Assembly: GCA_002839435.1 (NCBI GenBank)
Contig: PGYA01000007.1
Coordinates: forward strand, 14,756-78,755
Direction: 5' to 3'
From: Candidatus Riflebacteria bacterium HGW-Riflebacteria-2
GTDB lineage: Bacteria > Muiribacteriota > Ozemobacteria > Ozemobacterales > Ozemobacteraceae
DNA: 64,000 nucleotides
Made by a program: the position numbers and the translations under genes. Under the pieces are notes generated by a model. That model was not told the DNA's origin. It did not search any database and saw only the letters and a program-made list of their open reading frames with translations. Positions 2,636 through 50,169 of the stretch are shown piece after piece; position 1 is the first letter of the stretch, and each line of letters starts with the position of its first letter.

Positions 2636-3231
2636 CTGCTCATATCTGCGCGAAATGTTTCGAGATCAACCGCCTCGCGCTGACCATAATCAACCCGGAC
2701 CTTTACACAAACCAGGTCGTCGAAGCAGGAATAAGTCGCCACCGGTGCTGGAGGCGCCGGTGGAACCGGTGGAGGGCCGGGAGGAGCCTCGAAGTCTCTG
2801 AAACCAAAAACAAGAGCATCATTGTGCGGCGTTTCTATGTTCTGAGCTCGAAAAACCGTATTCACCCAGACACTTACCGAATAAGAAGCCCGGCCAATTG
2901 CTACCGCAGTCGAGCTTGCCGTCATGCCCGAGAATTCGAGAGAACCCTTGAACTCGCCCGATGGCGTCTGTATATTGAGAGGAATTGTGTCCAGCGAGCC
3001 TTCCAGCAGTTTGTTGTAGTTAACCGTCAACAAAACGTTGATAACAGCCTCACCAAGCTTTAGTGCCGTTTCCTGTTCTATCTGACGGGTGGCGGTGCCG
3101 TATGAAGTCGAAAAAGCGCCGATGGCAGGCAATATTGCAAGAGCCATAATTACAAGTGCGACAAGTATTTCGACCAGCGAAACCCCGCAGCGGGTACTTA
3201 AGGCTGTTCCGTGTCTACCTGTTCTTTTCAT
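2632..3231 (-). CDS. pseudopilin (prepilin N-terminal motif) with Pro-rich segment
   Basis: N-terminus GVSLVEILVALVIMALAILP matches the prepilin motif. There is a PPGPPPVPPAPPAP stretch near the C-terminus. Confidence 0.6.
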   Translation of the reverse strand: MKRTGRHGTALSTRCGVSLVEILVALVIMALAILPAIGAFSTSYGTATRQIEQETALKLGEAVINVLLTVNYNKLLEGSLDTIPLNIQTPSGEFKGSLEFSGMTASSTAVAIGRASYSVSVWVNTVFRAQNIETPHNDALVFGFRDFEAPPGPPPVPPAPPAPVATYSCFDDLVCVKVRVDYGQREAVDLETFRADMSR

Positions 3232-5656
3232 GCTTACGATCGATTACTCTGATGTTCGGGTTCTCATTGGTAACCCTCAGATACAGTCTCATGCTGCGTT
3301 CAAGACCGGCGTAATCAGTTGCCCTGACGTCAATGAACGGAAATCGTTGATTGATAAGCTCACCTTCCTCTGCACCGATAACATCAGGCGGGGTGGGTTC
3401 ACGGAAAACGACGCGAAGCTTGCCGTTAACACTTTCCTGCGTATCGATCGGTACCCGGTAACTGGCGCGTGGATGCTGGTTCGGCACTTCCACCATTATC
3501 TCACCATTATTGATACCGGTAGGAATGGAAACGATATTGTCGAGTTTCGCGCCGGCGCTGTCAATAGTTGCCCACTTGATGTTGTCATCGGTCCAGACAT
3601 CGATCAGATACTCAACGTCTTCCTGTATCATCGCTTTATTTCCAGGCAGTTCCAGCAGCGCAACTACCCTGCGCCCATAACTGTTGCGTTTACCAAAGGT
3701 TTCAATATCAAAATCCTGAGTTGCATCAGCTTGACGCATGTCAGACTGATCGTAAGACTCGAGTCTGAAATGCTTACGTATAAATTCGGGATCCGGGCTT
3801 GTTTTGAAGCGATTCAGCAAAATGCTTCGCTCCGTCGCATGCATTACATCACTATAAAAAATATCAACAATTCGAAAGTACAGGTCCTGACTGCCGTCCT
3901 CGACTCTGCTGCTCAAAAAGGGTATCGAGGTCGTCGGACCAAGAAAATCAACGTAATCAGCAACGTTCATATCGGCCGGTGCCGCTGATGACTTGTATTT
4001 TGTCGAATGAACTATAGTGAAATCGGGATCACCCTGTGGAATGACCGGCGGGAAGAAAATACGGCTGCCATCCTTGACCGATTCAAGCCTGATAACGATA
4101 TTTGGCAGATCGTTGTCGCGGATATTGACATAACCCTGGCCGCGGCGAAAATCAGAATTCAACTTGGCTTCCAGATCGCCCAGATAAACGTCATCAAAGG
4201 CTTCGACCGGGCGAAAATCAACCTGTATCGGCCAACCACGCGCAGCAAGAGGGTGCGTCAGCAGATTAGTATCTATAAGTTCGCCAGCAAAATTAACGTT
4301 AACGCTGCCAACAACCGTTGGTCCGAGACCGTAACAATTGACGGGATCATCATCATAAATCTTTGGATCCCCCGGATTCAAGTTACCGGACTCATCCCAG
4401 GCGTAAACCGTATAACGCATGGCACCATGGCATGAATTAGGCATGATGATATGATCAGTTTCGGCGCCAGACTGGATCACGCTGGGCTTTTCCATGACCC
4501 ATCTCTCTTCGTCTGCCCAGGTGATGGCCGGAGCTGCATCAATCTTGCCAAGCAACAGTGCTGTTCCGATTTTTCCGCCGGAATTGTCTTTGATTCTCAA
4601 GCCTTCAACCCGATACCAGTCACCGCTCGTGGCCGGTCTATTGATGCCAAGTTCAGGGAACTCTCCATCTATGCATCCTTCAATCATCGGTGGAGTTCGA
4701 TCTTTGAAGGTCATTATGAATTCTATTCCACTCTGATTTTCTACTATGGCAGAACCATCTTTTGTGTGCTCACCAATAATTGAAGCCAGATTCTTATAAA
4801 TATTGGGTTCGGTTACGTTGTGCTGGTCTCCCGAAGGTGAAGGATCTGACGGATCGGAAGGGTCGGAAGGGTCTGACGGATCGGAAGGGTCAGAAGGATC
4901 TGGCGGATCGGAAGGATCAGAAGGGTCTGGCGGATCGGAAGGGTCGGAAGGATCAGGCGGATCAGAAGGATCGGAAGGATCAGACGGATCGGAAGGATCG
5001 GAAGGATCAGACGGATCGGAAGGATCGGAAGGATCGGAAGGATCGGAAGGATCTGAAGGCGTCGCTCTGACGCAGGGAGGATATTCACAGAAAGCTCTGT
5101 ATTCCTGGCATGAAATGGCATTGGGCTCGGCCGTAAAAGGTTCAATGTATTTGTAATCTGTGCCCAGACACATAAAATATCTGCGCCGATGCGGATTTTC
5201 TGTATTCTCATAATCTCTAAAACGGAGACCGGCCAGAGGACGAAGTTTTTGCGGACGCCAGAACTCCTCACCGGTATCTTCATCGCGCTGCATGTAGCCA
5301 GAGTCGAGATAAAAATTCAGCAACAGGAAATCAGCAAAATTGATCCGAGCTGTAGAAAAAATCAGACCACCATTGCTGTTGAGCAGACTAAAAAAATCGT
5401 CGGCAGTTCTCTTTCTGGCAAAACCACCAAAGGTACTGCTGATATAGCCCTGATTGACAACCGAATCTTCGCTCGCAACCGTCATCTTGATGCCGGTTAT
5501 CCGGTCAACATCTTCATAGGTATCGACAGGGTTACCAAAGTCACTCTCAATCTGTACCGACTGAAGTATCGACATGGTATAGGCATCCTGAGCCATAACT
5601 CTGCCAGTTATCAGCGTTACGAACAAGAACAGACAAACACAAAACAGTCTTTTCAT
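3215..5656 (-). CDS. large secreted protein (813 aa) with a ~35x Pro-Ser-Asp tandem-repeat linker; possible pilus-associated adhesin
   Basis: Signal peptide MKRLFCVCLFLFVTLITGRVMA. Long (PSD)n low-complexity segment. The start overlaps the stop of the downstream pseudopilin gene, so it is in the same operon. Confidence 0.6.
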   Translation of the reverse strand: MKRLFCVCLFLFVTLITGRVMAQDAYTMSILQSVQIESDFGNPVDTYEDVDRITGIKMTVASEDSVVNQGYISSTFGGFARKRTADDFFSLLNSNGGLIFSTARINFADFLLLNFYLDSGYMQRDEDTGEEFWRPQKLRPLAGLRFRDYENTENPHRRRYFMCLGTDYKYIEPFTAEPNAISCQEYRAFCEYPPCVRATPSDPSDPSDPSDPSDPSDPSDPSDPSDPSDPSDPPDPSDPSDPPDPSDPSDPPDPSDPSDPSDPSDPSDPSDPSPSGDQHNVTEPNIYKNLASIIGEHTKDGSAIVENQSGIEFIMTFKDRTPPMIEGCIDGEFPELGINRPATSGDWYRVEGLRIKDNSGGKIGTALLLGKIDAAPAITWADEERWVMEKPSVIQSGAETDHIIMPNSCHGAMRYTVYAWDESGNLNPGDPKIYDDDPVNCYGLGPTVVGSVNVNFAGELIDTNLLTHPLAARGWPIQVDFRPVEAFDDVYLGDLEAKLNSDFRRGQGYVNIRDNDLPNIVIRLESVKDGSRIFFPPVIPQGDPDFTIVHSTKYKSSAAPADMNVADYVDFLGPTTSIPFLSSRVEDGSQDLYFRIVDIFYSDVMHATERSILLNRFKTSPDPEFIRKHFRLESYDQSDMRQADATQDFDIETFGKRNSYGRRVVALLELPGNKAMIQEDVEYLIDVWTDDNIKWATIDSAGAKLDNIVSIPTGINNGEIMVEVPNQHPRASYRVPIDTQESVNGKLRVVFREPTPPDVIGAEEGELINQRFPFIDVRATDYAGLERSMRLYLRVTNENPNIRVIDRKHEKNR
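4838..5057. repeat. imperfect 9-bp tandem repeat (GGATCGGAA-like units) encoding the (PSD)n linker
   Basis: Direct reading of the sequence shows about 25 tandem 9-mers with point variants (G/A/C at wobble positions). Confidence 0.8.
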
Positions 5657-19577: not shown

Positions 19578-20789
19578 ATGACACAGAAATGGCTGATCCT
19601 GGTGAGCATACTGCTTTTCACTGCTTTTGCTCCAGTTTATGGGCAGAGCGGCAGTTATCTCGACAGCATCTACAGCGCAGACGGCCAGGGCACCTCAGCC
19701 ATAGCTGACGAACCCGAAACCCGATATGTAGACGACAGCGATAATCCTCCCGAAGTCGTTGACGTCCCGGAACCAACTGGTGACCCGGCACAACAGAAAG
19801 CCCTCGAACGCCTGCAGAACATCATCAATCAGATCATGCGTATAATTGGCGGTAAAATGTGCGGCGCCAGAATTGTCGTGGTGGTAATTCCCTGCGAAAA
19901 AATAGTGCCAAAGCCCAAGCCCCCGGTAACCAGCACATCGACTTCTACTGCTACCTCGACCTCGACTGCGACCTCTACCGGCACGCAGACCTCTACCAGC
20001 ACAACCACTTCGACAAGCACGCAGACCTCGACGAGCACATCGACTTCGACCGCCACCTCTACTGGCACGCAAACCTCTACCAGCACAGCGACTTCGACCG
20101 GAACTTCAACGGCGACGGCGACGGCCACTTCCACCAGCACCGGCACCAGCACGGCAACAGGCAAAGAAGCAGTACGTGCCGCTATCCGGCAAAAATACGG
20201 CATAAATGCCGCCGATGGCCAGAATCAGACCTGGAGCGAAAATCAGCTGCGGGCAGCTGACGAAGCACTTGCTTCCTTACCATCGTTCTTCCGCAAGTGC
20301 ACCGATACAGTCTATCGTGACGGCCCGCCATACGACTCGAGAATACCACCCAGCGCCGCGGCCTATGTTATAGTGCCTCAGCACAAAGTTCATATGCTCG
20401 ATCTCAGCGCCCAGATGACACAGGGCGCCTACAATTCGCTGGTAGCGGCCTATGGACGCGCACCAACCACCGAAGAGCAGATGGCCTATCTCAAGCATAA
20501 TTTCAAACGCACTCTGGTGCATGAGATGACGCACTGTTTCCAGAATACCTACCCACAGGTCATGCAGAACTGGAGCAGACAATTCTGGCCGGGTGGCCGC
20601 CTCGTCGGACAGTGCCCAACCGGTTATGGTCGCACTCAGCCGGTTGAAGACATGTCAGAATCGGTAGCCACCTACTGGACCGGCGGCTCGATCAAAAATG
20701 GCGTATTCGTTTCAAGAAGCGGTGCCACCATGGATCTCGAACGCTACAACTTCATCAAGCAATACATCATGGATGGCAAGGAATACTGA
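19578..20789 (+). CDS. secreted HExxH zinc-metallopeptidase-like protein with a Thr/Ser-rich linker
   Basis: RBS GGGGGAGG. Signal peptide. A ~75-aa (T/S/A/G)n linker. The C-terminal domain has LVHEMTHCF (HExxH) and a downstream EDMSES motif with a candidate third Zn-ligand Glu. Confidence 0.55.
   Translation: MTQKWLILVSILLFTAFAPVYGQSGSYLDSIYSADGQGTSAIADEPETRYVDDSDNPPEVVDVPEPTGDPAQQKALERLQNIINQIMRIIGGKMCGARIVVVVIPCEKIVPKPKPPVTSTSTSTATSTSTATSTGTQTSTSTTTSTSTQTSTSTSTSTATSTGTQTSTSTATSTGTSTATATATSTSTGTSTATGKEAVRAAIRQKYGINAADGQNQTWSENQLRAADEALASLPSFFRKCTDTVYRDGPPYDSRIPPSAAAYVIVPQHKVHMLDLSAQMTQGAYNSLVAAYGRAPTTEEQMAYLKHNFKRTLVHEMTHCFQNTYPQVMQNWSRQFWPGGRLVGQCPTGYGRTQPVEDMSESVATYWTGGSIKNGVFVSRSGATMDLERYNFIKQYIMDGKEY
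19927..20160. repeat. degenerate tandem repeat of ACN/TCN codons encoding the Thr/Ser linker
   Basis: Repeated units such as acctcgac / acctctac / acttcgac are visible in the sequence. Confidence 0.7.
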
Positions 20790-20806: not shown

Positions 20807-22162
20807 ATGAATAGACTGGCACTGGTTCTGACAATCCTTCTGGCCCTTTCAGCTCCTGCCTGGAGCCAATCAGGCAGCTACCTCGACGCCGTCTACCAGG
20901 TCTACGACAACGCCAGCGACACCGACCCGCTGGAAACCCTTAAAAACAGCATTCGCGATCAGTTCGAAATCGAGATTGCCGATGACCCAGATGTTCATCG
21001 CTGGTCAGAAGACTGGCTAAATGCCACGAAAACCGTGCTGACCGCGCTTCCAGCCAGTTTTCGCGCGGCGACCCGCATGATCTACCTCGAACCCAGCAAC
21101 CTTGATTTCGAAGTCAAATACAATGGCTACAACGATCAGCATGGCATAGTTCAGATGGGCCATGGTTCGATGTATCCATCATCGGTTTACGTCAGCAAGT
21201 TCAAGGCGACCTATAACCGCCTGCCTACAAGCGCCGAAAAAATAGCACGTTTCAAGTATATCCTGGCGAGAGGCATGGCCTACAGCTTCATTCAGGAAAA
21301 CCCCGACATTTTCAAGGCATACGGTCAGACGATTACCTACGGTGACTACCCGACCAAAGTCTACGGGCCGGGTGCCGAAGCCAACATGGTTGTACTTCCC
21401 GGCAAAACACCATTGATGATCGATCTGGCATTTGCCATCGGTGAATACTGTGCGGCGCCTTCCAGCCTGCAGAAGAAATCAAAAGATCGCTTTGATTTCG
21501 TAAAAGCCCACGTTATGGGCGGCACTGCCATCTCCGGCTGGGATTACAAGCCAATCGATGACTCAGCCTCGAACACCACCGACCCCGGCAACGACGATCC
21601 GGGCAATAATGTCGAAGTTCCTACTGCCAGCGGCGCTCCCGAGATTCCAGATGGCGACTACATGCCGATTGTCACCGAAGTCGATGTCGGCACCGCTGCC
21701 GCCAATCTGCCGACTGAATGGAAAACCGCACCCGATCTGCTCAAGAGCGCAATTGCCGAGCTTTTCGAAGTGTTGCCCAAGTTTTTCTCGACCTGCACTC
21801 AGGCTATTGCCTATATGCCGACAACCGATACCGAAACCGCTTTTTCCGCCGAAGGCTTCGTCTTTATCACCCAGAATTCATGGTTCATGTCATCATTTGT
21901 CGATCTCGACGATGCCGCGCGCGGCAAGCGTTTTAAAGAGATACTGATGCGTGAAATGGCACTGCGCTTTCTCTACTTCCACCCTGAAGTCACGCAGAAG
22001 TGGAAAGACACCTTCGACAAGACCCAGAGCAGTTACGACGCCTATATCGACATGCAGCAGGCAGTTGTCGGCTATTTCGCAGCCCCGGCCTGGCTCAAAC
22101 AGGTGAACCAGGCGCGCTACAACTTCATCAAAACCGAGTTCATGCAGGGCAAAGAATTCTAG
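20807..22162 (+). CDS. secreted paralog of the upstream metallopeptidase-like protein, with an internally duplicated domain and degenerate (His-less) active-site motifs
   Basis: It shares the N-terminus (signal peptide + QSGSYLDxVY) and the C-terminus (RYNFIKxxxMxGKE[YF]) with the 19578 gene. The motif positions read ILARGMAYSF and LMREMALRF instead of HEMTH. Confidence 0.5.
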   Translation: MNRLALVLTILLALSAPAWSQSGSYLDAVYQVYDNASDTDPLETLKNSIRDQFEIEIADDPDVHRWSEDWLNATKTVLTALPASFRAATRMIYLEPSNLDFEVKYNGYNDQHGIVQMGHGSMYPSSVYVSKFKATYNRLPTSAEKIARFKYILARGMAYSFIQENPDIFKAYGQTITYGDYPTKVYGPGAEANMVVLPGKTPLMIDLAFAIGEYCAAPSSLQKKSKDRFDFVKAHVMGGTAISGWDYKPIDDSASNTTDPGNDDPGNNVEVPTASGAPEIPDGDYMPIVTEVDVGTAAANLPTEWKTAPDLLKSAIAELFEVLPKFFSTCTQAIAYMPTTDTETAFSAEGFVFITQNSWFMSSFVDLDDAARGKRFKEILMREMALRFLYFHPEVTQKWKDTFDKTQSSYDAYIDMQQAVVGYFAAPAWLKQVNQARYNFIKTEFMQGKEF

Positions 22163-22192
22163 TCCTTTGTCACATAAGAGTTTGGTGTTATC

Positions 22193-22265
22193 TGTCATTG
22201 CGAGCAAAGCGAAGCAATCTCACAGACAGAAGGATTGCTTCGTCGCTACGCTCCTCGCAATGACA
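22193..22265. repeat. palindromic intergenic element (TGTCATTGCGAG...GAAGCAATC // GATTGCTTC...CTCGCAATGACA), full copy, between convergent genes
   Basis: Nested inverted repeats are readable directly. Related copies occur at 36945, 45765 and 59795. Confidence 0.75.
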
Positions 22266-22302
22266 GTTTTCAAACACACATTCAAATGTGACAGAGGACT
22301 CT

Positions 22303-24846
22303 TCAGGTGCTGGAGCGGCGGGCAATCTGTTTTTTGGTGCCGCGGCTGGCGACGGCGATGGTGGGATCATCGGGCCAGGGGTGTTTCGGGTAGCGGCCTT
22401 TGAGCTCTTTTATCACCTGCGGATACCCGGTCTGCCAGAAAGAGGCAAGATCGGCGGTTATCTGTACCGGTCGCCCGGCCGGTGAGAGCAGGTGCACCAG
22501 CAATCGGCACTGGCCATCACAGATGGCTGGCGTCTGTGCCATGCCAAAGAGTTCCTGAATTTTTACAGCGAGAATCGGCGCCGCCTCAGCCGCCTGATAT
22601 TGCAGGCACAGGGCGCTGCCAGAAGGCACTGTAAAGCGCTCAGGCACCAGTTTTTCGAATTTTTCGCGATTTTTCCAGCTTAAATTCTGCAGGTATAACT
22701 GTTCGAGCGACTGCCGCTGCATATCGGCAAAACCGCGACATGTCGATGCCAGCGCGCGTATCTGCATCGCCAGCCAGTCATCGTCGATCGCCGGAAAATC
22801 AGCGCCAGCCCGACAAGCTTTGAGTGTAGTAACCCGGTTGATAAAGTTGCGGTTGGCGTCAGCATCGAGCGCCAGTGCCTTGCCGGGGTCAGCCAGCGCA
22901 GCGGCAACCAGAATTTCGACGGCTGCGTCAGCCTCGTCAGGCCTCACTGCTGCCTCATTTTCGCGCAGCATCAGTTTGCCGTAGAAAACACGCTCGCGCG
23001 CCATAACACGCGCGTGGGACCTGCTGAAAAACAGCTCGCGCCGACGCTGATAGAGACGCTGTTCGGCCAGCAAAGATTCTTCGAGCGCACAGGCAAGAAA
23101 TATCCGGCCGTCACCGATTCTCTGAGTCTGATCCAGGCGTAACGCGAGAATCAGCGGTTCCCCTGGCAACAGCCCGTTTTCACTGATAACAAAACCCTGG
23201 CCACCACAGATAGTATAACTGCCCGAACGCCCGTCACTGCGCCTTTGACAGACACGATCAGGAAATGCCGCGAGCAAAGCCCGGTGCAGTTTGTCGCCAG
23301 AAATTGTGGGCACTTGTGCCGGCTTTCTGCGCATGAGTTCGAGCAGCTGCTTCTGTATGTTATAAATTCTTCTGACCGCGTTGCGGTCAATTTCGATGTC
23401 TGGCGGCAAACTGCCGAGATCGCCGGCGGCAAGAAGCTGGAGACGCCATTCGAGGTCGGCATCGACCCGGTTTCTGCCGGTTCTTAAAAAGTCTTTCTCA
23501 GAAATCACGGCGGCGGCTAAAGCCGCGGTTTCGCCAATGCCAAGCTGCGCGGCAACAATCAGCATGCGCGCCAGCCTGGGCTCAAGCGGCAGTTCTGACA
23601 TCTTGCGACCGGCAGTTGTGATCTTGCCGCTTTCATCTACTGCGCCAAGCATTTGCAGCAGTTCCAGCGAACGCGCAATTTTTTCGGGGCCCGGCGATTG
23701 CAGCCAGTTGAAGTGTAATGGATCGCGACAGCCCCAGGCAAAAAGCTCGAGAACAGCAGAAGTCGGATCGATTCTGAGTATCTCGGGCGGATCGTTTTCG
23801 GCCATCTGATGATGTTCTGGCTGGCTCCAGAGGCGGTAAGCGCGGCCCGGCTTCAGACGACCGGCGCGGCCGGCGCGCTGCGCCGCCGAAGACCGGCTGA
23901 TACGATGCAGACTGAGCTGTTCAAGGCCGCTTTGTGAATCTATTTCGAGCCAGCGTGCTTCGCCGGAGTCGATTACTACGGTGATTCCATCGATGGTCAG
24001 AGAAGTTTCGGCGATATTGGTGCTCAAAATAATGCGCGGCCGCGCGGCTGGTCGCAAAACCTTTTCCTGTTCGCTTACTGGCAACGAACCGTGCAGATGC
24101 ATGATTTGATGCCCGGAAAGACTGGCGGCCAGATGTTCAGATACCCGCATTATTTCGCCCATTCCAGGCAAAAAGACAAGAAATTCCTCGGCGCGGCCAG
24201 ACTCAGCAACTATCTGCGCAATCGCACCGGCCAATTCACCGATGCGGTCACGGCCAGACGAAAAAGGCCGGTATTGAATATCTACCGGGTAAAGAAAGCC
24301 TTTACCTTCTATCAGTTGCGGCCGGTCAAGAAAGCTTTGCGCCAGTTCAAGGTCTGCGGTCGCTGACATCAGCATCAGCCTGAGATCAGGCCGCACCTCA
24401 CGTTTTATTTCGCGGCACAGGGCAAGGCAAAGATCGGTGTGCACCGAGCGTTCGTGAAATTCATCGAAAATTACCAGTCCAACGTCTTCGAGCAGAGGAT
24501 CCTTCTGCAGGCGCCGGGTAAGAATACCCTCGGTAAGCACTTCTATACGTGTTGCCGACGTGATATTGCTGTCGAAGCGGACTCTATGGCCGATCACGGC
24601 ACCTGGCGGCGAAGCGTCGAGACTGGCCATGCGGCGCGCCAGCGCCACGGCAGCGATTCGGCGTGGTTGCAATATCACGATGCGTTTTCCGGCCAGCCAG
24701 GCTTCGTCTTTCAGCGCCAGCGGCACGATGGTAGACTTGCCGGCCCCGGGCGCCGCCGACAGAATCACATCGCGATTATCAGCAAGAGCAGCCTTGATCT
24801 GAGGCAGACTCTCTTCTACCGGAAACCCGCGCGATCTTTGATTCAT
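22303..24846 (-). CDS. hrpB: ATP-dependent DEAH-box helicase HrpB
   Basis: Motifs GAGKST, DEFHER and SATAD are present. The protein is 847 aa with the characteristic HrpB C-terminal domain. Confidence 0.9.
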   Translation of the reverse strand: MNQRSRGFPVEESLPQIKAALADNRDVILSAAPGAGKSTIVPLALKDEAWLAGKRIVILQPRRIAAVALARRMASLDASPPGAVIGHRVRFDSNITSATRIEVLTEGILTRRLQKDPLLEDVGLVIFDEFHERSVHTDLCLALCREIKREVRPDLRLMLMSATADLELAQSFLDRPQLIEGKGFLYPVDIQYRPFSSGRDRIGELAGAIAQIVAESGRAEEFLVFLPGMGEIMRVSEHLAASLSGHQIMHLHGSLPVSEQEKVLRPAARPRIILSTNIAETSLTIDGITVVIDSGEARWLEIDSQSGLEQLSLHRISRSSAAQRAGRAGRLKPGRAYRLWSQPEHHQMAENDPPEILRIDPTSAVLELFAWGCRDPLHFNWLQSPGPEKIARSLELLQMLGAVDESGKITTAGRKMSELPLEPRLARMLIVAAQLGIGETAALAAAVISEKDFLRTGRNRVDADLEWRLQLLAAGDLGSLPPDIEIDRNAVRRIYNIQKQLLELMRRKPAQVPTISGDKLHRALLAAFPDRVCQRRSDGRSGSYTICGGQGFVISENGLLPGEPLILALRLDQTQRIGDGRIFLACALEESLLAEQRLYQRRRELFFSRSHARVMARERVFYGKLMLRENEAAVRPDEADAAVEILVAAALADPGKALALDADANRNFINRVTTLKACRAGADFPAIDDDWLAMQIRALASTCRGFADMQRQSLEQLYLQNLSWKNREKFEKLVPERFTVPSGSALCLQYQAAEAAPILAVKIQELFGMAQTPAICDGQCRLLVHLLSPAGRPVQITADLASFWQTGYPQVIKELKGRYPKHPWPDDPTIAVASRGTKKQIARRSST

Positions 24847-34624: not shown

Positions 34625-35053
34625 ATGCAGACACAGATACATCCATTCAGCAACGCCGACCGGCAGTGGTTGGCACGCAGCCTTGAGCGCGGTCGCGCGA
34701 TATGTACACACTTCAAGCTTCTGGAAACCAGCCGCGATGCTGCGGCGCTCGATCAGGCCTTTCTGCTCTGGGCCAGGTCGCCAGCCGGTGCTGGCCAATT
34801 CAGCGCCGATGAAATTGCCGACGGGCTCGGAAGTCTTTTTGGCGAACTGCTGCAGCGTCAGTTTAACTTCAGCTGGTGCCAGATCGAAGACCAGCATGGA
34901 CGTGAAATCGCTCTGCTCGAAGAAACTACTGGCAGCATCGTCATGCCGGTCAACGCGGTGCACAAACGCATCGAACCGGAACTACAGAAACAGCCATTTT
35001 TCGCGCCGATGTGGCAGATGATCGCCGCCCATCTTGAGAAAAAAGAAAACTGA
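34625..35053 (+). CDS. hypothetical protein (142 aa)
   Basis: ORF with protein-like composition. It overlaps alternative-frame ORFs, so the call is weak. Confidence 0.3.
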   Translation: MQTQIHPFSNADRQWLARSLERGRAICTHFKLLETSRDAAALDQAFLLWARSPAGAGQFSADEIADGLGSLFGELLQRQFNFSWCQIEDQHGREIALLEETTGSIVMPVNAVHKRIEPELQKQPFFAPMWQMIAAHLEKKEN

Positions 35054-35296
35054 AGAGTATCGCACAAAGACGCAGAGACACGAAAAAAGCCTTAAGACAG
35101 AAGAGTCTCACGCAGAGACGCTGAGGCGCAGGCAAAAGACAAAACCGAAGAACCGCGCACTAAGGCACGGAAACCCAAAGAAGACTTCAGTATGAGAGCA
35201 GAAGGCCCTCACGCAGAGGCCTGAGACCCTGAGGCCAGAAATATTAGAAAACTAATCTTTATTGCAAAACTAATCTATTTTGGTTATATTAGTAAT

Positions 35297-35554
35297 ATGA
35301 AAACCCTTAATGTTAGACTTGATGATTGGACACATAAAAACCTCAAGGCTCTTGCAGCTTTGAAAGAAACAACCATTGCGGAATTACTGAAAATGCTGGT
35401 CGGCAAAGAAATCGAAGAAAACCCTCAAGAGTGCGAACTTTGCCGCAAATTTGGGCATGAACCGAACGAAACTACCAGAAAAGCAATGGCTGAAAAAGGT
35501 GGCAAATCATTCAAGTCGATAAAAGCGCTCATGGAAGACCTGCAGAGTGATTGA
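35297..35554 (+). CDS. type II antitoxin (ribbon-helix-helix, DinJ/RelB-like)
   Basis: N-terminus MKTLNVRLDDWTHKNLKALAA has an RHH beta-strand/helix pattern. It overlaps the downstream YafQ-like toxin gene. Confidence 0.55.
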   Translation: MKTLNVRLDDWTHKNLKALAALKETTIAELLKMLVGKEIEENPQECELCRKFGHEPNETTRKAMAEKGGKSFKSIKALMEDLQSD

Positions 35555-35819
35555 CAAAATCCTTCGTAAAACCCAGTTTAAGAAAGACTTCAAGCGCATC
35601 ATCAAGCAGGGGAAAAATCCCCAGGAAATTTCAAAATTACTGTCCATGCTCATTGAAGAAAAGCCAATCCCGGAAAAGTACAAAGACCATCCTCTTATTG
35701 GTGATTACAGCGGTTATCGGGAACTCCACATAGCACCAGACTGGCTTCTGGTTTACAAAATTGAAGATAATACGCTGACCCTTGCAAGAACAGGTTCTCA
35801 CTCAGAACTTTTTGGCTGA
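35547..35819 (+). CDS. yafQ: type II toxin, YafQ/RelE family mRNA interferase
   Basis: KDFKRIIKQGKNPQEISKLLSMLIE...DHPLIGDYSGYRELHIAPDWLLVYKIEDNTLTLARTGSHSELF matches the YafQ consensus. Confidence 0.8.
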   Translation: MIDKILRKTQFKKDFKRIIKQGKNPQEISKLLSMLIEEKPIPEKYKDHPLIGDYSGYRELHIAPDWLLVYKIEDNTLTLARTGSHSELFG

Positions 35820-36036
35820 TTTTAGAAGAGCCGCGCACAAAGACACGGAGACACAAAGAAAGCCTTTATTTTTTAGAGTTGCAGTCAAATAATTGCCGCC
35901 GGCTTTGTGACTTTGTGGCTCTGTGCGAGAAGAAAAGTCTCACGCTGAGCTGCTGAGGCGCAGGTTTTGCCTTTTTGTTGAAAAACGGGTATTATTATAC
36001 ATATAATCGTATTCGAAATTACAGGAGGCCAATCTT

Positions 36037-36264
36037 ATGGAACGACCAAGAGTTACTTTTACGATCGACAGGAACATCCTGCTCGAGCTCGACAGTATTG
36101 CCAAAGAATTGGGCCAGAAGAAGAGCCACATTGTAGAACAGGCGCTGGAACTTTACTTTGATACTGTTGATACGATGATCGCTGACCGTAGGCTTGACCG
36201 GCTGGCCAGCGGCAAAGATAAAACTATTCCGGCTGAAGACGTCTGGAAGGAACTCGACCTGTAA
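36037..36264 (+). CDS. relB: type II antitoxin (RHH, RelB/DinJ family)
   Basis: RBS CAGGAGG. RVTFTIDRNILLELDSIAKELGQKKSHIVEQALELYF is an RHH fold. Its stop codon overlaps the toxin start. Confidence 0.7.
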   Translation: MERPRVTFTIDRNILLELDSIAKELGQKKSHIVEQALELYFDTVDTMIADRRLDRLASGKDKTIPAEDVWKELDL

Positions 36265-36527
36265 TGTACCGACTGGAATTCCTGCCGGGTGCTGTTAAAG
36301 ATTTGAAAAAGCTGGATTTTGTCGTTCAAAAAATGATCAAAAACAAGCTTGAGATTCTTGCAGACAACCCTGGACAGCTGAAAAACGACATTAAAGCTCT
36401 CAAAGGAAACCATACCGGCAAATACAGATTGCGGGTCAGAGATTATCGCGTGATATTTCAGAGGCGAGATGATGTTCTGATAATTCTGATTGTCGGCATC
36501 GGGCATCGAAAAAGCGTGTACAAATGA
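36264..36527 (+). CDS. relE: type II toxin, RelE/ParE family
   Basis: YRLEFLPGAVKDLKKLD...KYRLRVRDYRVIFQRRDDVLIILIVGIGHRKSVYK matches the RelE consensus (RVGDYRIIY...IGHRKDVY). Confidence 0.8.
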   Translation: MYRLEFLPGAVKDLKKLDFVVQKMIKNKLEILADNPGQLKNDIKALKGNHTGKYRLRVRDYRVIFQRRDDVLIILIVGIGHRKSVYK

Positions 36528-36663
36528 CGATCATAACCATCATTCCGCACCCATAATGTTTTTTCGAGACAGAAGAGACTCGCACGAAGACACAGAGATA
36601 CTAAGAAGATTTTGAGCTGCTCAGCAGCAGCCCACACAAGACAAGCAATCATGACCTGAAATT

Positions 36664-36752
36664 AATCTGCGCCTATCTGTGTAATCACCCGGGCGCTTCC
36701 ATCCTGATGCGCCCAAGTATCACCCACATCCTGTGGGCGACGGCGGATACTG
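36664..36752. repeat. composite MITE-like repeat, copy A (AATCTGCG...ATCACCCGGGCGCTTCCATCCTGATGCGCCCAAGTATCACCCACATCCTGTGGGCGAC.GCGGAT)
   Basis: Near-identical to 47746-47830. Related copies lie at 39587 and 50054. Confidence 0.7.
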
Positions 36753-36785
36753 TCTTTCTCTTAAAAGTCGTATCGGGATCGAAAT

Positions 36786-36832
36786 CGAAAACCAAAACCA
36801 AAACCAAAACCAATACCAATACCGATACCAAT
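36786..36832. repeat. microsatellite (AAACC)4(AATACC)2-like
   Basis: Readable directly from the sequence. Confidence 0.7.
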
Positions 36833-36944
36833 TAGAAGATAAGACATAGGTCTGGATTAGTGGCGGGGATTTTATTGTAATTGCATGTAGACGGAAAAAC
36901 TTTTATCATCGAGATTCAGGAATACGGGCAACCGGTATTTTGCC

Positions 36945-37001
36945 TGTCATTGCGAGGAATTCTGCGTAGCGTTACGCGGAGCAGAATGACGAAGCAATCT
37001 C
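36945..37001. repeat. palindromic-element copy (TGTCATTGCGAGG...GACGAAGCAATCTC), half-site variant with inner hairpin
   Basis: Shares both terminal motifs with the 22193 element. Confidence 0.65.
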
Positions 37002-37073: not shown

Positions 37074-39371
37074 TTGCTGGTTTTATACTCGGCGACGGTT
37101 TTTCTGTCGGCTTTTCTGATTTTTCTCGTGCAGCCGATGATCGGCAAGATGATTCTGCCGCTGGTCGGCGGCGCGCCGGCAGCCTGGAACAGCTGCCTGT
37201 TCTTCTTTCAGGCATTGATGCTGGCCGGTTATGCTTACGCACATTTTTCGCTGCGCCGGCTCGGACTGGCACGGCAGGCACTGACACATCTTGTGCTCAT
37301 GCTGGTTGCACTGGTTCTGCTGCCGATATCGTTTGACCGCAGTGTCGCAGTGCCGGAAGATCCGACCTTCTGGCTAATTATCAGACTTTTCAAAAGCGCT
37401 GGCCTGCCATTTTTCGTGTTGGCCGCACTGTCGCCCCTACTGCAGACCTGGTTCAGCCGCACCGGGCATGTCCGAGCTGAAAACCCCTACTTTCTCTTCT
37501 CCGCCAGCAACCTCGGCAGTTTTGCAGCCCTGCTGCTCTACCCGACACTGGTCGAGACCAGATTCGATCTTACTTTTCAAACAAAAATCTGGGCAGGCGG
37601 CTTCGCACTGCTGCTGATTCTGCTGGTGGCCTGCCGACTGTATGTTAAATCGGTAGAAACAGTCGCGGTTGCCGATGACACAGCCACCCCTGGTTCTGAC
37701 ACACCCGACAATAGAATTAAATGGCTGATAGCAGCAATGCTTCCTTCGGTGTTGCTGCTTGCTGTCACCCAGTTCATAACCGCTGATATCGCTCCGATCC
37801 CCTTACTATGGGTAATACCACTGGCAATCTATCTGATTACCTATGTAATGGCATTCAGCAATCGCAACCTGTCACCAGCCAAAATCGAAACGCTTTTCCT
37901 GCTGGCCATACTGCTGTTTCCGGTTGCTTATTTCAAGCTTAATCAAAGCCTTGCAGCTGCATTGCCGACTCATCTGTTCATTTTGTTCGCAATCTCACTC
38001 TATTGCCACAGCTACCTCGCCAGCAGTCGCCCGAACGCAAAAAATCTTACCGGTTACTACACGATTATGTCGCTTGGCAGCGTAATTGGCAGTCTTGGCG
38101 TAACTTTCATAGCGCCTTTGCTTTTTTCCAACGATGCCGAATACCCGCTGACCATAATATTCGCCTGCTCCATGATAAAGCGCTTCAGACAGTCTGACGG
38201 TGAAGCAACCGATAGCAGAGAAGAAAGCCTTTCATTGTCAATTGCCATAGGCATATACGCAGCTGCCGCGCTTGTTGCCATTGAAAACGTCAACTTCGGA
38301 CGTTATCTGCAACAGACAGCACACAGCCTGGGATTCGACCCCGGTAGCGGGAACCTTAACGCCATGATTCATTTTCTGGCGGCAAGGCAGCTTGTAACCA
38401 CCATGCTGTTTCTGTTTATCGCTGCCGCCCTGCCACTTCTCATCGTCAAAAAAATGCCGCGACTCAATCTGGCGCTTTTTTCATTAATCAGCATAGGCTT
38501 GCTGGCAATAAACCATGCTGGAACCATGCCCCTCAGACTGCACAGCTCACGCAACTTCTTCGGAATCAAGAAAGTCACGGTCGCAAGTGAAAAAAACACC
38601 ATAGCCATGATTCATGGTTCCACCATGCACGGCATGCAAAGCCTGCTGCTTGATAAAATGTTAGAACCGCTTGCCTACTTTCATAAAAATGGCCCAATCG
38701 GCAGCATTTTTGCGCAGGAATTCGCAAAAAAGTCCGATTTCAAGGCCGGAATTCTCGGGCTGGGTATAGGCTCGATGCTCGCTTACGCAAAGCCTGGTCA
38801 GGAATTCACTTTTTATGAGATAGATCCTGAAGTCATCAAAATAGCGCAGAACCCTGACTACTTCAGCTATCTTTCAGCATTCAAGGATCGCGCGCGAATA
38901 ATCTGCGGAGACGGGCGGCGCATGATCGAGCAGAGCCCGAGCAGGTATTTCGATGCAATTTTTGCTGATGCTTTTTCTTCTGACTCTATTCCTGTGCATC
39001 TCGCAACAGAGGAGGCACTGAATATCTACGCCGACAGGCTCCAACCCGATGGAATCATTGTTTTCAATATCAGCAATCGCTATATCGACCTTAAACCGGT
39101 ATTGGCCACACTGGCTCACAATGCGGACTTCATTGCCATGCACGTTCTTGACAACGTCTTTGCCAAAGACGACCCGGCCAATTTCGGCCGCCATGTCTCT
39201 GAGTATGTTGTATTTACCAAATCAGAGCAGATGGCAGAGAGCCTCATGACAAGCCCGATTCTTGCATGGCACAAATTGGCTGACCGTATTTCTTCTGACA
39301 AGACGACAGCAGCAGTTCGCTGGACAGATAACAGTTCAAGCCTTTTCCCGCTGTTCAAAATGTTCCGCTGA
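37074..39371 (+). CDS. fused MFS-like membrane domain / spermidine-synthase-like protein
   Basis: TTG start. About 11 TM helices at the N-terminus. The C-terminal PABS-like fold carries GILGLGIGSM...FYEIDPEVIKIA...FDAIFADAFSSDSIPVHLATEE. Confidence 0.65.
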   Translation: MLVLYSATVFLSAFLIFLVQPMIGKMILPLVGGAPAAWNSCLFFFQALMLAGYAYAHFSLRRLGLARQALTHLVLMLVALVLLPISFDRSVAVPEDPTFWLIIRLFKSAGLPFFVLAALSPLLQTWFSRTGHVRAENPYFLFSASNLGSFAALLLYPTLVETRFDLTFQTKIWAGGFALLLILLVACRLYVKSVETVAVADDTATPGSDTPDNRIKWLIAAMLPSVLLLAVTQFITADIAPIPLLWVIPLAIYLITYVMAFSNRNLSPAKIETLFLLAILLFPVAYFKLNQSLAAALPTHLFILFAISLYCHSYLASSRPNAKNLTGYYTIMSLGSVIGSLGVTFIAPLLFSNDAEYPLTIIFACSMIKRFRQSDGEATDSREESLSLSIAIGIYAAAALVAIENVNFGRYLQQTAHSLGFDPGSGNLNAMIHFLAARQLVTTMLFLFIAAALPLLIVKKMPRLNLALFSLISIGLLAINHAGTMPLRLHSSRNFFGIKKVTVASEKNTIAMIHGSTMHGMQSLLLDKMLEPLAYFHKNGPIGSIFAQEFAKKSDFKAGILGLGIGSMLAYAKPGQEFTFYEIDPEVIKIAQNPDYFSYLSAFKDRARIICGDGRRMIEQSPSRYFDAIFADAFSSDSIPVHLATEEALNIYADRLQPDGIIVFNISNRYIDLKPVLATLAHNADFIAMHVLDNVFAKDDPANFGRHVSEYVVFTKSEQMAESLMTSPILAWHKLADRISSDKTTAAVRWTDNSSSLFPLFKMFR

Positions 39372-39550
39372 TTGCAGTTCGATTGACAAAAGAAATAACC
39401 GAAGAACCTCTCACGAAGGCACAGAGACACCAAGAAAAGCTTTAGCATGAATAGCAGCAAATTTCACATTGAAGCGCTGAAAAGGCTTATCGTGCGTGTC
39501 GCAATCGACATCAGGCCTTCATCCTGCGCGCATAATGACAGAGAGAAACT

Positions 39551-39578
39551 GATTACGATTACGAGCACGAGCACGAAT
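39551..39578. repeat. short tandem repeat (GATTAC)2(GAGCAC)2
   Basis: Same module as at 61590-61676. Confidence 0.6.
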
Positions 39579-39586
39579 TAATATAC

Positions 39587-39681
39587 AAATCTGCGGCAAT
39601 CTGTGTAATCACCCGGGCGCTTCGCCCCTGGGAGCCCTGCGGATTCTCCTATGCTTCTGTGCCTTTGTGGCTTTGTGCGAG
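39587..39681. repeat. composite MITE-like repeat, copy B (shorter)
   Basis: AAATCTGCGGCAATC...ATCACCCGGGCGCTTCGCCCCTGGGAGCCCTGCGGATTCTCC...CTTTGTGGCTTTGTGCGAG. Confidence 0.65.
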
Positions 39682-39846
39682 ATTTGTTTGTCAAAAAATT
39701 TTGCTCTAGTGTAAAAAGTATTTTCGAGAATTAACTACAACCCATATCAGCTACAGTGTATAATATAAGAGAGACAGCGAAAACACAGCCGGATTCTGGC
39801 ATGGTTGTTGCGACATAAAAGCTGGTTGGGCGAGAAGGGGTTGCGT

Positions 39847-42800
39847 ATGTACCGGATATTTCTTTATCTGAGGCGCCGCGGTTTTACGCTGGCCGAAATT
39901 CTGGTGGCGACGGTAATCGCCGGATACTGCATCATGCCGATAGTTGGCAGCATGCAGGGCGGAATCAGACATACCGAAAACTTCAATCACCGCGAAAAAC
40001 TGCGCCTGCTCGCCCGGTCGCGCCTCAATAAAGAACTTGCAGCTGGCGCTTTCGACCATTCCGCAGTTAACTCAGCCCCGGCCTACCATTATGTTTTCAG
40101 GCACCCTGTCAGCGCAGACTATATTTCCTTTGACACTGGAATGACCACCGACAATGCCAGCTTCCCTGACCTGATCACCCCTTCGGGAATCGGAATCGAT
40201 GATCTGCTGTACTCATACAGAGTCAATGTTTCGGTCAGAGAAAATGTAACCATTGCGACAACATCTTCAAGTATTGATCCCAATATGCTAAAGGGTCCAC
40301 GCGGCCTCAAAGCAGTTGTAGTTAATGCCGAACTGCTCGACGGCCCCTATGTTATAGCTACTGATTCGATAAGCTACTTTTCACTGCTGACAGTGCCGAG
40401 TTTCGGCGACCAGTTCATCTGGATTTCCAACTCGAGCATGGTGCGAATTCTGGCCGTAGATGCCAGTACCCGCTCTATTGCTGAAACATTCCAGCTACCC
40501 TACGATACGAGCAAAGCCTTCGACAAAGCCGAACAGGACCCTTTTCGACCATGGAACATCGACCTGCACCCCAGTCGTCGATTAATTGGCGTTCAGTCAA
40601 GACAAAAGATAAGGCTGCTCAACATAGACAAATCGCACTCCTCCTATCAGCAAACTTCCGGATTTGTCGATGTTGCCAGCCATCTTGGTACCGACCCGGA
40701 TCCAGCCAAAAACATTTATGCCGACGCAAAAGCTGACGCAGCCAAAGCCGAAGAAGATCGCGGCATCGTTTTTCGACCAGACGGCAAGTATTTTTTCGTC
40801 AGCAGTCATAGTGACAAATCTTTATACGTCTACAAAATCGATGTTGCCACTTTCACCGATCCGGTCTGGTGGTCACAGGCAGCAGCGTCTGTTGCTCTGG
40901 CCAAACGTTTTGGCCTGAAAGCTGCTGAAGAAGGCGATTCTGATACAGAACACGATAAATTCACCGATATGATCGCCGGCAACGATGGCTATCTCTACCT
41001 CTCCATAAAAGACAAGAAAAACATCATCAGATTTCCCATGTATCCAAACTCTTTCGCCAGCGGCTGGACTTATGAATACGTACTTAAACCAACCGTCGAC
41101 AAAACGGTAAACTCGGTCTGGACTTCAAAAGATGGCAAATATGTGTATATACTCGATGATGAGTACAGGGTCGCCCAGTTCAAATCACACCCATTTGGCA
41201 AAATAGGATACGCCACATTATTCTCAGATGAAAAAATGCGTGATTTCAAGCTTTCTCAGGACTCAAGATATCTTATGGTAACAGATGTCAAAAGTGCGTC
41301 AAACAAGGGTGGTTTGTGGATCAAGAAAATCAATGAAATCAACTTTGCCAGCAATCCCACAATCGCCGCAGTGGATATGAGCAAAGTATATCCTGGTTAT
41401 GCGCTGAAATCTGACCTCTGCGTTCTTTCTCCGACTGGTTATGAAGTTCTATTTTCGCATAAAGACAAGCCTGAGCTGTATTTTGCCGGCATCGCCAGTG
41501 CAGCGAATAATGATTACACATCAAGTCTGCCCGCAGGCCAGATACTGGTTTACGACGGCACCGGCAAACCCTGCGCCGACATCGTGACGCGTGTGCCCGA
41601 GCACATGCTGGTAGGAACAAGTGACAGCAGAATCAAATTCTTCGACCTGCACACTTTCAAATTCGACGAAGACAGAGAGATAACTGGTCTGCGCGGAGTA
41701 CCGAGAACCATCGGGGTAAGCCCGCAGGGCACCAGATTCAAGGTCGGTTATGACGATGTCGTAAGCGGCCTCGATGCCTATAACATGATAGATTCCTCCA
41801 ACATTTCGGTTAATGAACTTACAGGAAACAGCAGGATAGTTTCTTATGCCGCCGACGATGAAACAGTGCGCCATGCCAGCGGTGTTGCAACATATTCAGA
41901 TAACTTTTATGCCACTCTGGAAGTAGATGGCTCAGCTACCCCTAACGGCTACTGGTTAAGAGACGCTCCCATCGGCAGTTTTGGCGACAACAACATCGAT
42001 GCAGCCTGGGTTCCACAGGACATGAAAGCCATGCCGAAAGGCGGCTTTCTCATGCTTTACAGAAAGAGCGATGGTTCCGCCATGCTCGACTGGGTCGGCA
42101 AAATCAAATGGGGCGCCAGCAAAGGCAAATACCAGCGCTTCGCCCGCTGGATAAGTCCATCCGCACCGTCCACCCTTCCCACATCACCAGAGCCAGGAAA
42201 CCCCGGAAATGTAGACACATCGGTTGGGTGTATTCAATTGCTCCAGGCAAGCAATTTCCCAGTTGGCACGACAATAACCCATGTCACTTACACTACGGGT
42301 CCCTTTGCCGGCACAAGATATTTTACTCCAGTGATAGTAGAAATAAATGGTGGAGTAAAAACAATAAAAGACTATGCAACATCGATTTCATCAACCCAGA
42401 ACCTTACTGATATTACGTCCGCAATCTCATGGCAGGTCAATGGAGGTCTGATTCAAACGTCCAATTATTATGTCGGCTTCTGGTTTGGACAGATCGGAGG
42501 CAGCGCTGGACAGGGCTTATTCGATCATGCCAATACAGGCGGTTCTTATGGATCAGACTACGTTAACGCTGGCCCAACAGCCATAACCTCGGCACAAATT
42601 GTTGGTGGCAACCATGTAATAACTTCTGGACCTAACGATACCAACAGGCAATACCCGGTTAAATTCACCGGGACTTTACCAGTAACCAGTTCTTTCCCGC
42701 CACGCTATGCACAGAATATCGCGATCAGCCAAGACGAAGGTTTCCTGGCCATTGAAGCTTCCGGAACTCCGCATGTGGTCTATCTTTATGACTTCGCCAC

Positions 42801-45711: not shown

Positions 45712-45764
45712 TTCAGGAGAAGAGGCTCACGCGGAGGCGCAGAAAGGTTATTATGACTGAAAAC

Positions 45765-45850
45765 TGTCATTGCGAGGAGGGCATCAGCCCGACGCGGCAA
45801 TCTCCATGTCCAAAAAGATTGCTTCGTTGGCTTTGCCGACTCGCAATGAC
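45765..45850. repeat. palindromic-element copy (full hairpin) downstream of the giant gene
   Basis: TGTCATTGCGAGG...GGCAATCTC...GATTGCTTCG...CTCGCAATGAC. Confidence 0.7.
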
Positions 45851-45892
45851 GGCAGGAACCTGCTCTGCGGCTCTGCGTAAGAAAAATTCTTT

Positions 45893-47745: not shown

Positions 47746-47913
47746 AAATCTGCGTTAATCGGCGGCATCACCCGGGCGCTTCCATCCTGATGCGCCCAAG
47801 TATCACCCACATCCTGTGGGCGACTGCGGATGTTCTCCTTCTTCTCCGGGTTTCTGCTCTTCTGCCCAAAGATTTCCGGCTGCCTTCTTTGCGGCTTTGT
47901 GTCTCTGTGCGAG
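47746..47913. repeat. composite MITE-like repeat, copy C (longest, ~170 bp)
   Basis: Contains all three modules in order: AATCTGCG..AATCGGCGGC, ATCACCCGGGCGCTTCCATCC...GCGGATGTTCTCC, and CTTTGCGGCTTTGTGTCTCTGTGCGAG. Confidence 0.7.
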
Positions 47914-47951
47914 GTATTGTATAATAGAGAAAATGCGGGGCGGAGGTTTTT

Positions 47952-50144: not shown

Positions 50145-50169
50145 AAAATGACCGGCGATTAATGCAGCG

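Follow-up and report, generated by a model that had tools for sequence, protein, structure and literature searches.

Intergenic YGTC-tagged hairpin units in a Candidatus Riflebacteria contig are probably repetitive extragenic palindromes

Six hairpin units at four intergenic sites

We analyzed a 64,000-nt stretch (here referred to as the window) of contig PGYA01000007.1 of Candidatus Riflebacteria bacterium HGW-Riflebacteria-2, which is part of a metagenome assembly, and focused on a short palindromic repeat that lies between its genes. An initial annotation of this stretch had described a palindromic repeat family at four gene boundaries. In agreement with that description, a two-box scan (5' box, gap of 3 to 60 nt, 3' box, at most three mismatches) identified six units, U1 to U6, at four sites that are all intergenic on the open reading frame (ORF) map, one between convergent and three between co-directional genes. 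Two of these sites contain inverted pairs. Pair 1, at 22193-22265, consists of U1 (+) and U2 (−) and is located between the convergent genes 20807-22162 (+) and 22303-24846 (−), the latter of which encodes an HrpB helicase. Pair 2, at 45765-45851, consists of U3 (+) and U4 (−) and is located between the co-directional genes 39805-45711 (+), for a 1968-aa Kelch-repeat protein, and 45893-46507 (+), a prepilin-type gene. The other two sites have a lone unit, sense-oriented in both cases: U5, at 36945-37001 (+), lies upstream of gene 37074-39371 (+), and U6, at 59795-59834 (−), lies 8 nt past the stop codon of the DUF711 gene 59842-61203 (−). The sites had thus been placed correctly in the initial annotation, except that the second pair ends at 45851 rather than at 45850 and that the last unit runs to 59834. 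The two lone copies, which had been listed as half-site or variant copies, are complete single units.

Alignment of the six copies gave the unit formula 5'-YGTC / ATTGC / GA / apical hairpin G...C / GAA / GCAAT / C-Y-N, i.e., an unpaired YGTC tag, a 5-bp foot (ATTGC/GCAAT), a purine internal loop (GA vs GAA), an apex, and a tail. U1 (22193..22221, +) is of the short type, has both boxes exact, and is composed of TGTC, ATTGC, GA, GCAAAGC, GAA, GCAAT, and CTC. U2 (22231..22265, −) is of the long type and reads TGTC-ATTGC-GA-[G GA GCGTAGC GA C]-GAA-GCAAT-CCT. Together, they form a tag-outward (head-to-head) heterodimer of a short and a long unit, in which the 13-nt spacer TCACAGACAGAAG (22220..22232), whose first two bases are shared with the U1 tail, represents the loop of a long hairpin. 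U3 (45765..45804, +) reads TGTC-ATTGC-GA-[G GA GGGC ATCA GCCC GA C]-GCG-GCAAT-CTC, with the variant 3' box GCGGCAATC, and its inverted partner U4 (45815..45851, −) reads CGTC-ATTGC-GA-[G TCGGC AAA GCCAA C]-GAA-GCAAT-CTT; the 14-nt spacer of this pair, TCCATGTCCAAAAA (45803..45816), likewise shares its first two bases with the U3 tail. The single unit U5 reads TGTC-ATTGC-GA-[34-nt apical hairpin GAATTCTGCG..CGCGGAGCAGAATGAC]-GAA-GCAAT-CTC, and U6, in which the tag (AGTT) and the 5' box are degenerate, reads AGTT-ATTGC-GA-[G GCGGGC GAAA GTCCGA C]-GAA-GCAAT-CTC. In all six units, the apical hairpin is different, the flanks are identical or nearly identical, and the ATTGC/GCAAT foot pairs. The tag is TGTC in four units, CGTC in one, and AGTT in one, and the tail is CTC in four, CCT in one, and CTT in one. 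U2 and U3 share a 22-nt perfect inverted match (22251-22272 and 45758-45779) that comprises the 5' box and 7 nt upstream of it (TGAAAAC); the extension of this match past the 5' box may mean that the two units have a common origin of recent date or that the boundary of the element lies further out.

The 12-mer TGTCATTGCGAG is present in exact form at 22193 (+), 22254-22265 (−), 36945 (+), and 45765 (+), i.e., in four copies compared with ~0.008 expected by chance (arithmetic estimate for 64 kb, both strands), and near-copies are present at 45840-45851 (−) with one mismatch and at 59823-59834 (−) with two. CATTGCGAG has 5 copies vs 1.06 expected, a number reached in none of 100 shuffles, and the second box, GAAGCAATC, has 5 copies vs 1.19 expected, each of them 6 to 34 nt downstream of a same-strand first box. 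In shuffled DNA, the two-box scan returned 0 to 1 matches per 0.6 to 1.1 Mb. The two copies initially described as nested hairpins do fold as long hairpins, and each is an inverted pair of units separated by a spacer of 13 to 14 nt. For pair 1, the predicted folding energy is −36.3 kcal/mol as RNA (z −5.1) and −23.8 as DNA (z −6.2), and for pair 2, it is −50.3 kcal/mol as RNA (z −6.9) and −26.8 as DNA (z −5.5). Based on standard energy rules, which leave out tandem G·A pairs and GNA mini-hairpins, the single units U5 and U6 form weak folds (z −0.9 to −1.9).

Variation, pairing, and distribution of the unit

Outside the window, we searched for the exact pattern GTCATTGCGAG-N(4-34)-GAAGCAATC and found matching stretches in GTDB species genomes and in IMG/VR phage contigs, more than 120 in each, which are lower bounds. 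Variation was then analyzed in a mismatch-tolerant manner on 550 units, taken from the window and from 322 loci. The external copies were fetched with the exact-flank pattern, so the GTC of the tag is fixed by the search, while the preceding Y is independent of it. Among the 550 units, the tag is CGTC in 259, TGTC in 230, and different in 61, and C or T precedes GTC in 89%. The most frequent tails are CTC (184), CCA (169), and CCC (56), with CCA being dominant in the species genomes (103 units). The 10 nt upstream of the units are pyrimidine-rich. The main variation in the flanks is a change of the 3' loop strand from GAA to GCG or GTG, of which GCG, the variant present in U3, is the commonest (22 units).

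The apical inserts are diverse, with 319 distinct versions. They fold better than shuffled versions (−7.2 vs −2.9 kcal/mol for inserts of 17 to 24 nt), and the apex, which is from 7 to ~40 nt long and free in sequence, always pairs. The commonest core is GTCATTGCGAG-CGAAGC-GAAGCAATC. Among the 7-nt apices, 119 of 162 conform to GCGNAGC with N = A most frequent, and variants with a G-T wobble (GTGAAGC and GCGAAGT) are also present. In an alignment of 28 distinct 34-nt units, five of the six apical pairs change on both sides; 38 compensatory cells were counted compared with 14.5 ± 2.8 in shuffles, none of 500 shuffles reached 38, and all slid registers had far fewer compensatory cells. By contrast, the foot is invariant in 27 to 28 of these 28 units, and its five pairs never vary. 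The tag, the foot, and the purine loop are constrained in sequence, whereas the apex is constrained only in structure. This bipartite unit, in which a conserved tag and foot are combined with a freely varying, covarying apex, is not recognized in the initial annotation.

Approximately half of the units have an inverted partner from their own family; partners from other families are rare, and for canonical CGTC units they amount to 16 ambiguous cases among the 550 units. The two units of a tag-outward pair, typically a short and a long one, are usually ~13 to 30 nt apart, and a pair can form a single long hairpin or a cruciform. Using the exact pattern, we counted 50 tag-outward and 4 tag-inward pairs. 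With mismatches tolerated, 136 tag-outward pairs were identified with a median spacer of 23.5 nt. Twelve of these are homodimers and 124 are heterodimers, 79 of the 136 combine a short and a long unit, and the commonest dimer, to which U1/U2 belongs, has inserts of 6 and 12 nt (33 of 136).

To relate the units to neighboring genes, we used rough ORF calls in 120 species genomes. We found 20 sites between convergent genes compared with 6 between divergent ones (binomial p ~0.01), and single units between co-directional genes are sense-oriented in 11 cases and antisense in 2 (p ~0.02). Thus, the sites are biased to gene 3' ends. Absence of the motif elsewhere or lack of a positional bias to gene ends had been named beforehand as what would speak against a repeat family; the motif is present beyond the window, in the species genomes as well as in the phage contigs, and it has this bias.

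In a few loci, units, or 5' halves together with a pyrimidine-rich linker, are organized in short tandem arrays (L046:2695-2818, L128:1340-1870, and L036:6030-6190). The array in L046 has four units with a 33-nt period, and in L036, GTCATTGCGAGGTGCACCCCTCCT is repeated. These arrays look like slippage products.

The matches listed for the GTDB species genomes cover about 11 phyla. Carriers among them include alphaproteobacteria (Bradyrhizobium, Sphingomonas, Novosphingobium, Micavibrio, and Rickettsiales), Bacteroidota (Pedobacter, Mucilaginibacter, Flavobacterium, and Prevotellaceae), Gamma- and Deltaproteobacteria, Chloroflexota, Cyanobacteria (Nostoc and Microcoleus), Melainabacteria, Patescibacteria, Zixibacteria, Planctomycetota, Latescibacterota, Bacillota (Sporomusa), and Helicobacter rodentium. 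Plasmids from Methylosinus trichosporium OB3b, Methylocystis, Novosphingobium, Legionella, Calothrix, and Halomonas have copies too, in each case outside annotated features. The viral contigs are from genuine tailed phages based on their genes for portal, major head, terminase, and tail fibre proteins. The distribution is patchy: in 80 unselected loci (583 kb), we found only five weak matches. The closest relative of the HrpB helicase next to pair 1 in the metagenome collection is only 60% identical, too distant for a comparison of the window with an orthologous empty site.

Related phages allowed such comparisons. The junction occupied by a unit at L003:4355-4388 is empty, with the genes forming a tight junction, in six related phage contigs; the extra DNA in L003 consists of a pyrimidine-rich leader of ~13 nt, the unit, and ~4 nt. 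In the alignments of occupied and empty sites among related phages, we observed no target-site duplication, and the boundaries are fuzzy. At another phage junction, two phages have a unit and a third has an unrelated hairpin, which hints that the hairpin as such is what that junction needs. In L008 (3135-3222) and L104 (622-709), a pair of units takes the place of a variable ~50-nt segment in a conserved, probably coding region, as compared with L010, L066, and L095; these pairs may be intragenic copies, as in the Rickettsia RPEs.

Relation to known repeats and alternative explanations

The initial annotation had likened the family to repetitive extragenic palindromes (REPs) and to miniature inverted-repeat transposable elements (MITEs). 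The likeness to REPs holds: the units are short, intergenic, and hairpin-forming, occur alone or in inverted pairs, and prefer gene 3' ends. REPs are among the commonest bacterial non-coding repeats. They have been divided into GTAG- and CGTC-tagged superfamilies (Di Nocera, De Gregorio, Rocco 2013, BMC Genomics 14:522, PMC3733652). According to that paper, members of the CGTC class have an unpaired tag, CGTC or in many cases TGTC, their stems start with AT almost without exception, and their 3-nt tail is close to CCA; most dimers are head-to-head, few are tail-to-tail, and many are heterodimers. The copies are described there as mostly intergenic, downstream of ORFs and between co-directional or convergent genes, as numbering tens to thousands per genome, and as lacking a dedicated transposase. 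The superfamily, with the families CGTC-1 to CGTC-4, includes the Neisseria dRS3 element and Rickettsia RPE-4 and RPE-6, and is known from five phyla, mainly Alphaproteobacteria; in the discussion of the same paper (PMC3733652), bulged members are mentioned as ones that may have escaped the 2013 search.

The units described here share with this class the YGTC tag, the stem starting with AT, the tag-outward heterodimers, the sites 3' of ORFs, the lack of a linked transposase, and the presence in many phyla. The short unpaired tail may be a further common trait; over the 550 units, it is CTC slightly more often than CCA, the consensus of the class. The host range, with about 11 phyla among the matches listed plus tailed phages, is wider than the five phyla reported for the class. 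In addition, canonical CGTC REPs, e.g., CGTC-ATTCCCGC-GAAA-GCGGGAAT-CCA, co-occur in the same fetched loci, and some of them carry the ATTGC/GCAAT foot too (CGTC-ATTGCCGGG-CTTGA-CCCGGCAAT-CCA). We, therefore, regard it as likely that the elements are REP-type repeats of the CGTC/TGTC-tagged kind. The family is probably an uncatalogued member of this known kind, one whose stem is interrupted and whose apex varies, and the published term "Bradyrhizobium CGTC-1 with loops of different length" may cover the sequence type in the window. For the source window, the family is an ordinary genome feature and not a new system.

Several points weigh against this assignment. The CGTC-1 to CGTC-4 families have uninterrupted stems of 8 to 9 bp and loops of 4 to 5 nt, while the foot of the window unit is only 5 bp long and is followed by a 2 x 3 internal loop (GA/GAA) and a variable apex, so its stem is not the uninterrupted one that characterizes the class. 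The intragenic peptides of CGTC-1 to CGTC-4 (SFPRKRES, VIPAKAGI, VIAGLDPAIH, and VIPWLDHGI) are unlike the peptides of this unit. Part of the flank conservation results from the exact-flank retrieval of the external copies; the tag base, the tail, and the conservation within the window are independent of the retrieval pattern. The copy-number census is limited to ~79 kb of the source contig, which contain six units, with none in the 15 kb of this contig beyond the window. The sense bias of single units is based on crude ORF calls and small numbers, and in one phage contig (L015), the units, eight in number, all run antisense to its genes, each lying after a stop codon and before the next ribosome-binding site. 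Finally, mobility is inferred from the presence/absence differences between related phages.

Similar to the GTAG REPs, BIMEs, and REPINs of E. coli and Pseudomonas, the unit is a tagged hairpin that is found at gene 3' ends and forms inverted doublets, which fold as one long hairpin. Its heterodimers resemble those of the E. coli Y and Z units, and, as in the complex of REP-associated tyrosine transposase (RAYT) with REP, the hairpin foot is conserved and the upper part is variable. Unlike the GTAG REPs, its tag is YGTC and not GT[AG]G, and no RAYT is present beside any sampled copy. REPs are species-specific in sequence (2018 survey), and the inheritance of REPIN-RAYT systems is described as mainly vertical. 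By contrast, the same 20 flank bases of our unit are kept across phyla and are carried on phages, making this family a clear exception to the species-specific sequence of REPs.

The apex resembles a known physical motif. GCGNAGC and GCGNNAGC are unusually stable, nuclease-resistant DNA mini-hairpins, with N = A ranked most stable (Hirao and co-workers; review PMC13037366), and their reported natural sites are phage replication origins and promoters (PMC13037366). The commonest apex of our units is exactly GCGNAGC with N = A leading, while the order of the other three bases differs from that in the review; the apices of canonical CGTC-1 REPs are GCGNNAGC-like, i.e., of the other mini-hairpin form. 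Unlike the mini-hairpins as such, the window units are dispersed genetic repeats.

The units would be non-autonomous DNA that is copied or lost via single-stranded DNA (ssDNA), and a trans-acting enzyme would read the tag and the foot of the hairpin in the way RAYT reads GTAG and the REP foot. A structure acting at the DNA level fits the dominance of C-GNA-G mini-hairpins as well as the Y-GA-R tandem mismatches. To our knowledge, the CGTC-tagged REP class has no known mobilizing enzyme and no tested function. We detected no transposase domain among the larger window ORFs scanned and no Y1 transposase/RAYT in the window or among 150 sampled neighbors. When the ORFs lying no more than 1 kb from units in 240 loci were clustered all against all, no family recurred except phage structural proteins, and no Pfam family was found more than twice among 150 genes adjoining units in species genomes. 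Based on this lack of a recurrent neighbor family (240 loci; 150 neighbors), a linked GIY-YIG nuclease or RAYT/Y1 transposase was rejected. A more specific version of the proposal, which we put forward tentatively and regard as rather unlikely, is that the YGTC tag and the foot are the site of a trans-acting ssDNA enzyme and that phages carry this REP class across phyla. Candidates would be an orphan HUH-type nuclease or a replication factor, either universal among hosts or phage-borne, that reads GTC next to a mini-hairpin resistant to SSB. Such an enzyme together with phage carriage would explain why CGTC-type REPs lack a linked transposase and why the sequence is kept in ~11 phyla, unlike in the lineage-bound REPIN-RAYT systems.

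Any specific function that might be assigned to the units is considerably more likely to be wrong than right. REPs in E. coli are a barrier to exonucleases at the 3' end of transcripts. By analogy, a transcribed unit at a gene end or between cistrons might serve as a 3' exonuclease barrier and an insulator, and not as an intrinsic terminator, making a role as a stabilizer of mRNA 3' ends plausible. The sense transcript would carry the stabilizing G·A pairs and GNA loops, and the antisense transcript would carry C/U mismatches. This difference between the two RNA forms could account for why single units tend to be sense-oriented and why pairs are used where both strands are of importance.

If the units were instead structured functional RNAs, the foot and the GA/GAA loop would bind a conserved protein, with the apical helix as a spacer, and they would act in cis on neighboring mRNAs. 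The strong compensatory variation in the apex next to a constant internal loop and foot, the mostly sense orientation of single units in species genomes (11 vs 2), and the G-T wobble apices are in agreement with this possibility. We regard it as unlikely nevertheless: approximately half of the units belong to inverted pairs, in which each strand has one unit, all eight units in L015 are antisense, and a consistent association with particular genes is lacking. Moreover, the dominating triloops are C-GNA-G, the signature of DNA mini-hairpins, and not the RNA-typical GNRA or UNCG, and, as checked by hand, the GA/GAA loop is outside the K-turn register. Rfam gave no match at gathering thresholds for the whole window, and in the permissive E-value mode, applied to two regions, it returned only generic hairpin noise with scores below the family gathering scores.

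The initial annotation had also suggested that the elements could act as bidirectional terminators. Strong hairpins shortly after stop codons, one of them between convergent genes, and a run of four T's (GTTTTC) after pair 1 on the + strand are what Rho-independent bidirectional terminators might look like. A terminator scan of both pairs detected no hairpin-plus-T-run at 22100-22360 or 45680-45940, and a T-run is absent after pair 2 as well as after the single units. Furthermore, many phage units are located in tightly packed structural operons, between cistrons and a few bases ahead of the following ribosome-binding site, and termination at such positions would do harm. We, therefore, consider it very unlikely that the elements are terminators of this type.

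MITEs are 100 to 400 bp long, carry terminal inverted repeats that stem from a parent insertion sequence, and have target-site duplications. Similar to MITEs such as Correia/NEMIS, ERIC, RUP, and Nezha, the units are short, dispersed, non-coding, palindromic (in pairs), and can be co-transcribed with neighboring genes, and their presence differs between related phages. That they are deletion derivatives of an insertion sequence, moved by its transposase via terminal inverted repeats with duplication of the target site, is highly improbable all the same. Neither the size of MITEs nor terminal repeats of a parent insertion sequence were seen in the units; the occupied and empty phage sites differ without a target-site duplication and without sharp boundaries; single units are common and whole in themselves; no insertion sequence with these ends is present in the window or beside the 150 sampled neighbors; and the spread over ~11 phyla is beyond that of any single insertion sequence. 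No transposase relative was found either, and the MITE-like part of the initial description is not supported. The probability that the matches are chance palindromes or low-complexity matches is practically nil, as this explanation is already refuted by the four exact 12-mers vs ~0.008 expected, the six units vs 0 to 1 matches per Mb in shuffles, and the hundreds of copies elsewhere with paired apices, even if the 12-mer with up to two mismatches is not enriched (12 vs 7.9 expected).

Other identities were considered and rejected. A sarcin-ricin loop and known small ribozymes were discarded after hand checks; the cores of the hammerhead, hairpin, and twister ribozymes are absent. The R'' and R' core sites of integron attC sites are also absent, and the tandem arrays, which are present in few loci (L046 and L128), have 8- to 17-nt linkers and no spacers as in CRISPR. 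A full-text literature search with sequence and peptide strings returned only primer noise, and the longer strings ATTGCGAGCGAAGC and CGAAGCGAAGCAATC were found in none of the 8 million papers searched.

As the initial annotation had correctly stated, the units generate spurious small ORFs with the peptides CHCEERSDEAI and CHCEEG...; such ORFs, together with the consensus translations VIASEAKQS, LLRFARND, and DCFASLAMT, can pollute protein databases. The units can also seed misassemblies and could mark hairpins in 3' untranslated regions that affect mRNA decay. The sharp separation between a recognition part (tag, foot, and purine loop) and a varying apex offers a handle on the mobilization of the CGTC class. 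Conservation over many phyla limits the possible partners to proteins that are widely shared or move horizontally, and the polymorphism between related phages provides gain and loss events that can be dated and dissected.

Other repeats and genes in the window

The window otherwise contains ordinary chromosomal genes. It also has a second intergenic repeat family, unrelated to the units, which occurs in the forms CGCACAAAGACACGGAGACACAAAGAA and AGAAGAGTCTCACGCAGAGACGCTGAGGCGCAGG and the inverse TGTGGCTTTGTGCGAGA at 35038-35182, 35811-35964, 36558-36607, 39387-39436, 39658-39682, 45718-45751, 47877-47914, and 50108-50145; one copy lies 14 nt upstream of U3. With one exact-pattern match in IMG/VR, this family looks lineage-specific. 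A third family, AATCTGCG..AATCTGTGTAATCACCCGGGCGCTTCC, is located in the same composite intergenic regions at 36664-36759 and 47747-47842 (96 nt, 88% identical) and at 39588-39630 and 50046-50077, and has two exact matches in IMG/VR. A further repeat, GATTACGATTACGAGCACGAGCACGAA, is present once at 39551 (39551-39579) and as an inverted pair at 61590-61674 (within 61587-61675), with 27-nt arms that are 31 nt apart.

A toxin-antitoxin/defence-type cluster is found at 35297-36527 and 47952-49308. Its modules comprise an antitoxin with a YafQ toxin, RHH_3 with a ParE toxin, a Uma2 nuclease, and a nucleotidyltransferase with HepT, and each module is bracketed by these other repeat families in a cassette-like layout. 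Just past the end of the window, there is a tyrosine recombinase together with an AbiEii/AbiEi pair. A 110-nt direct repeat (85% identical) is present at 48469-48578, the 3' end of the Uma2 gene, and at 49316-49425, just after the HepT gene.

Two ORFs contain in-frame tandem repeats. In the 813-aa ORF 3215-5656 (−), a 9-nt repeat extends over 4785-5108 with ~36 copies by span, and in the 403-aa ORF 19578-20789 (+), an 18-nt repeat encoding a Thr/Ser-rich segment extends over 19929-20162. Lastly, a short-period A/C-rich tract, gaaaaccaaaaccaaaaccaaaaccaataccaataccgatacc, is located at 36775-36835 between the toxin-antitoxin region and U5.

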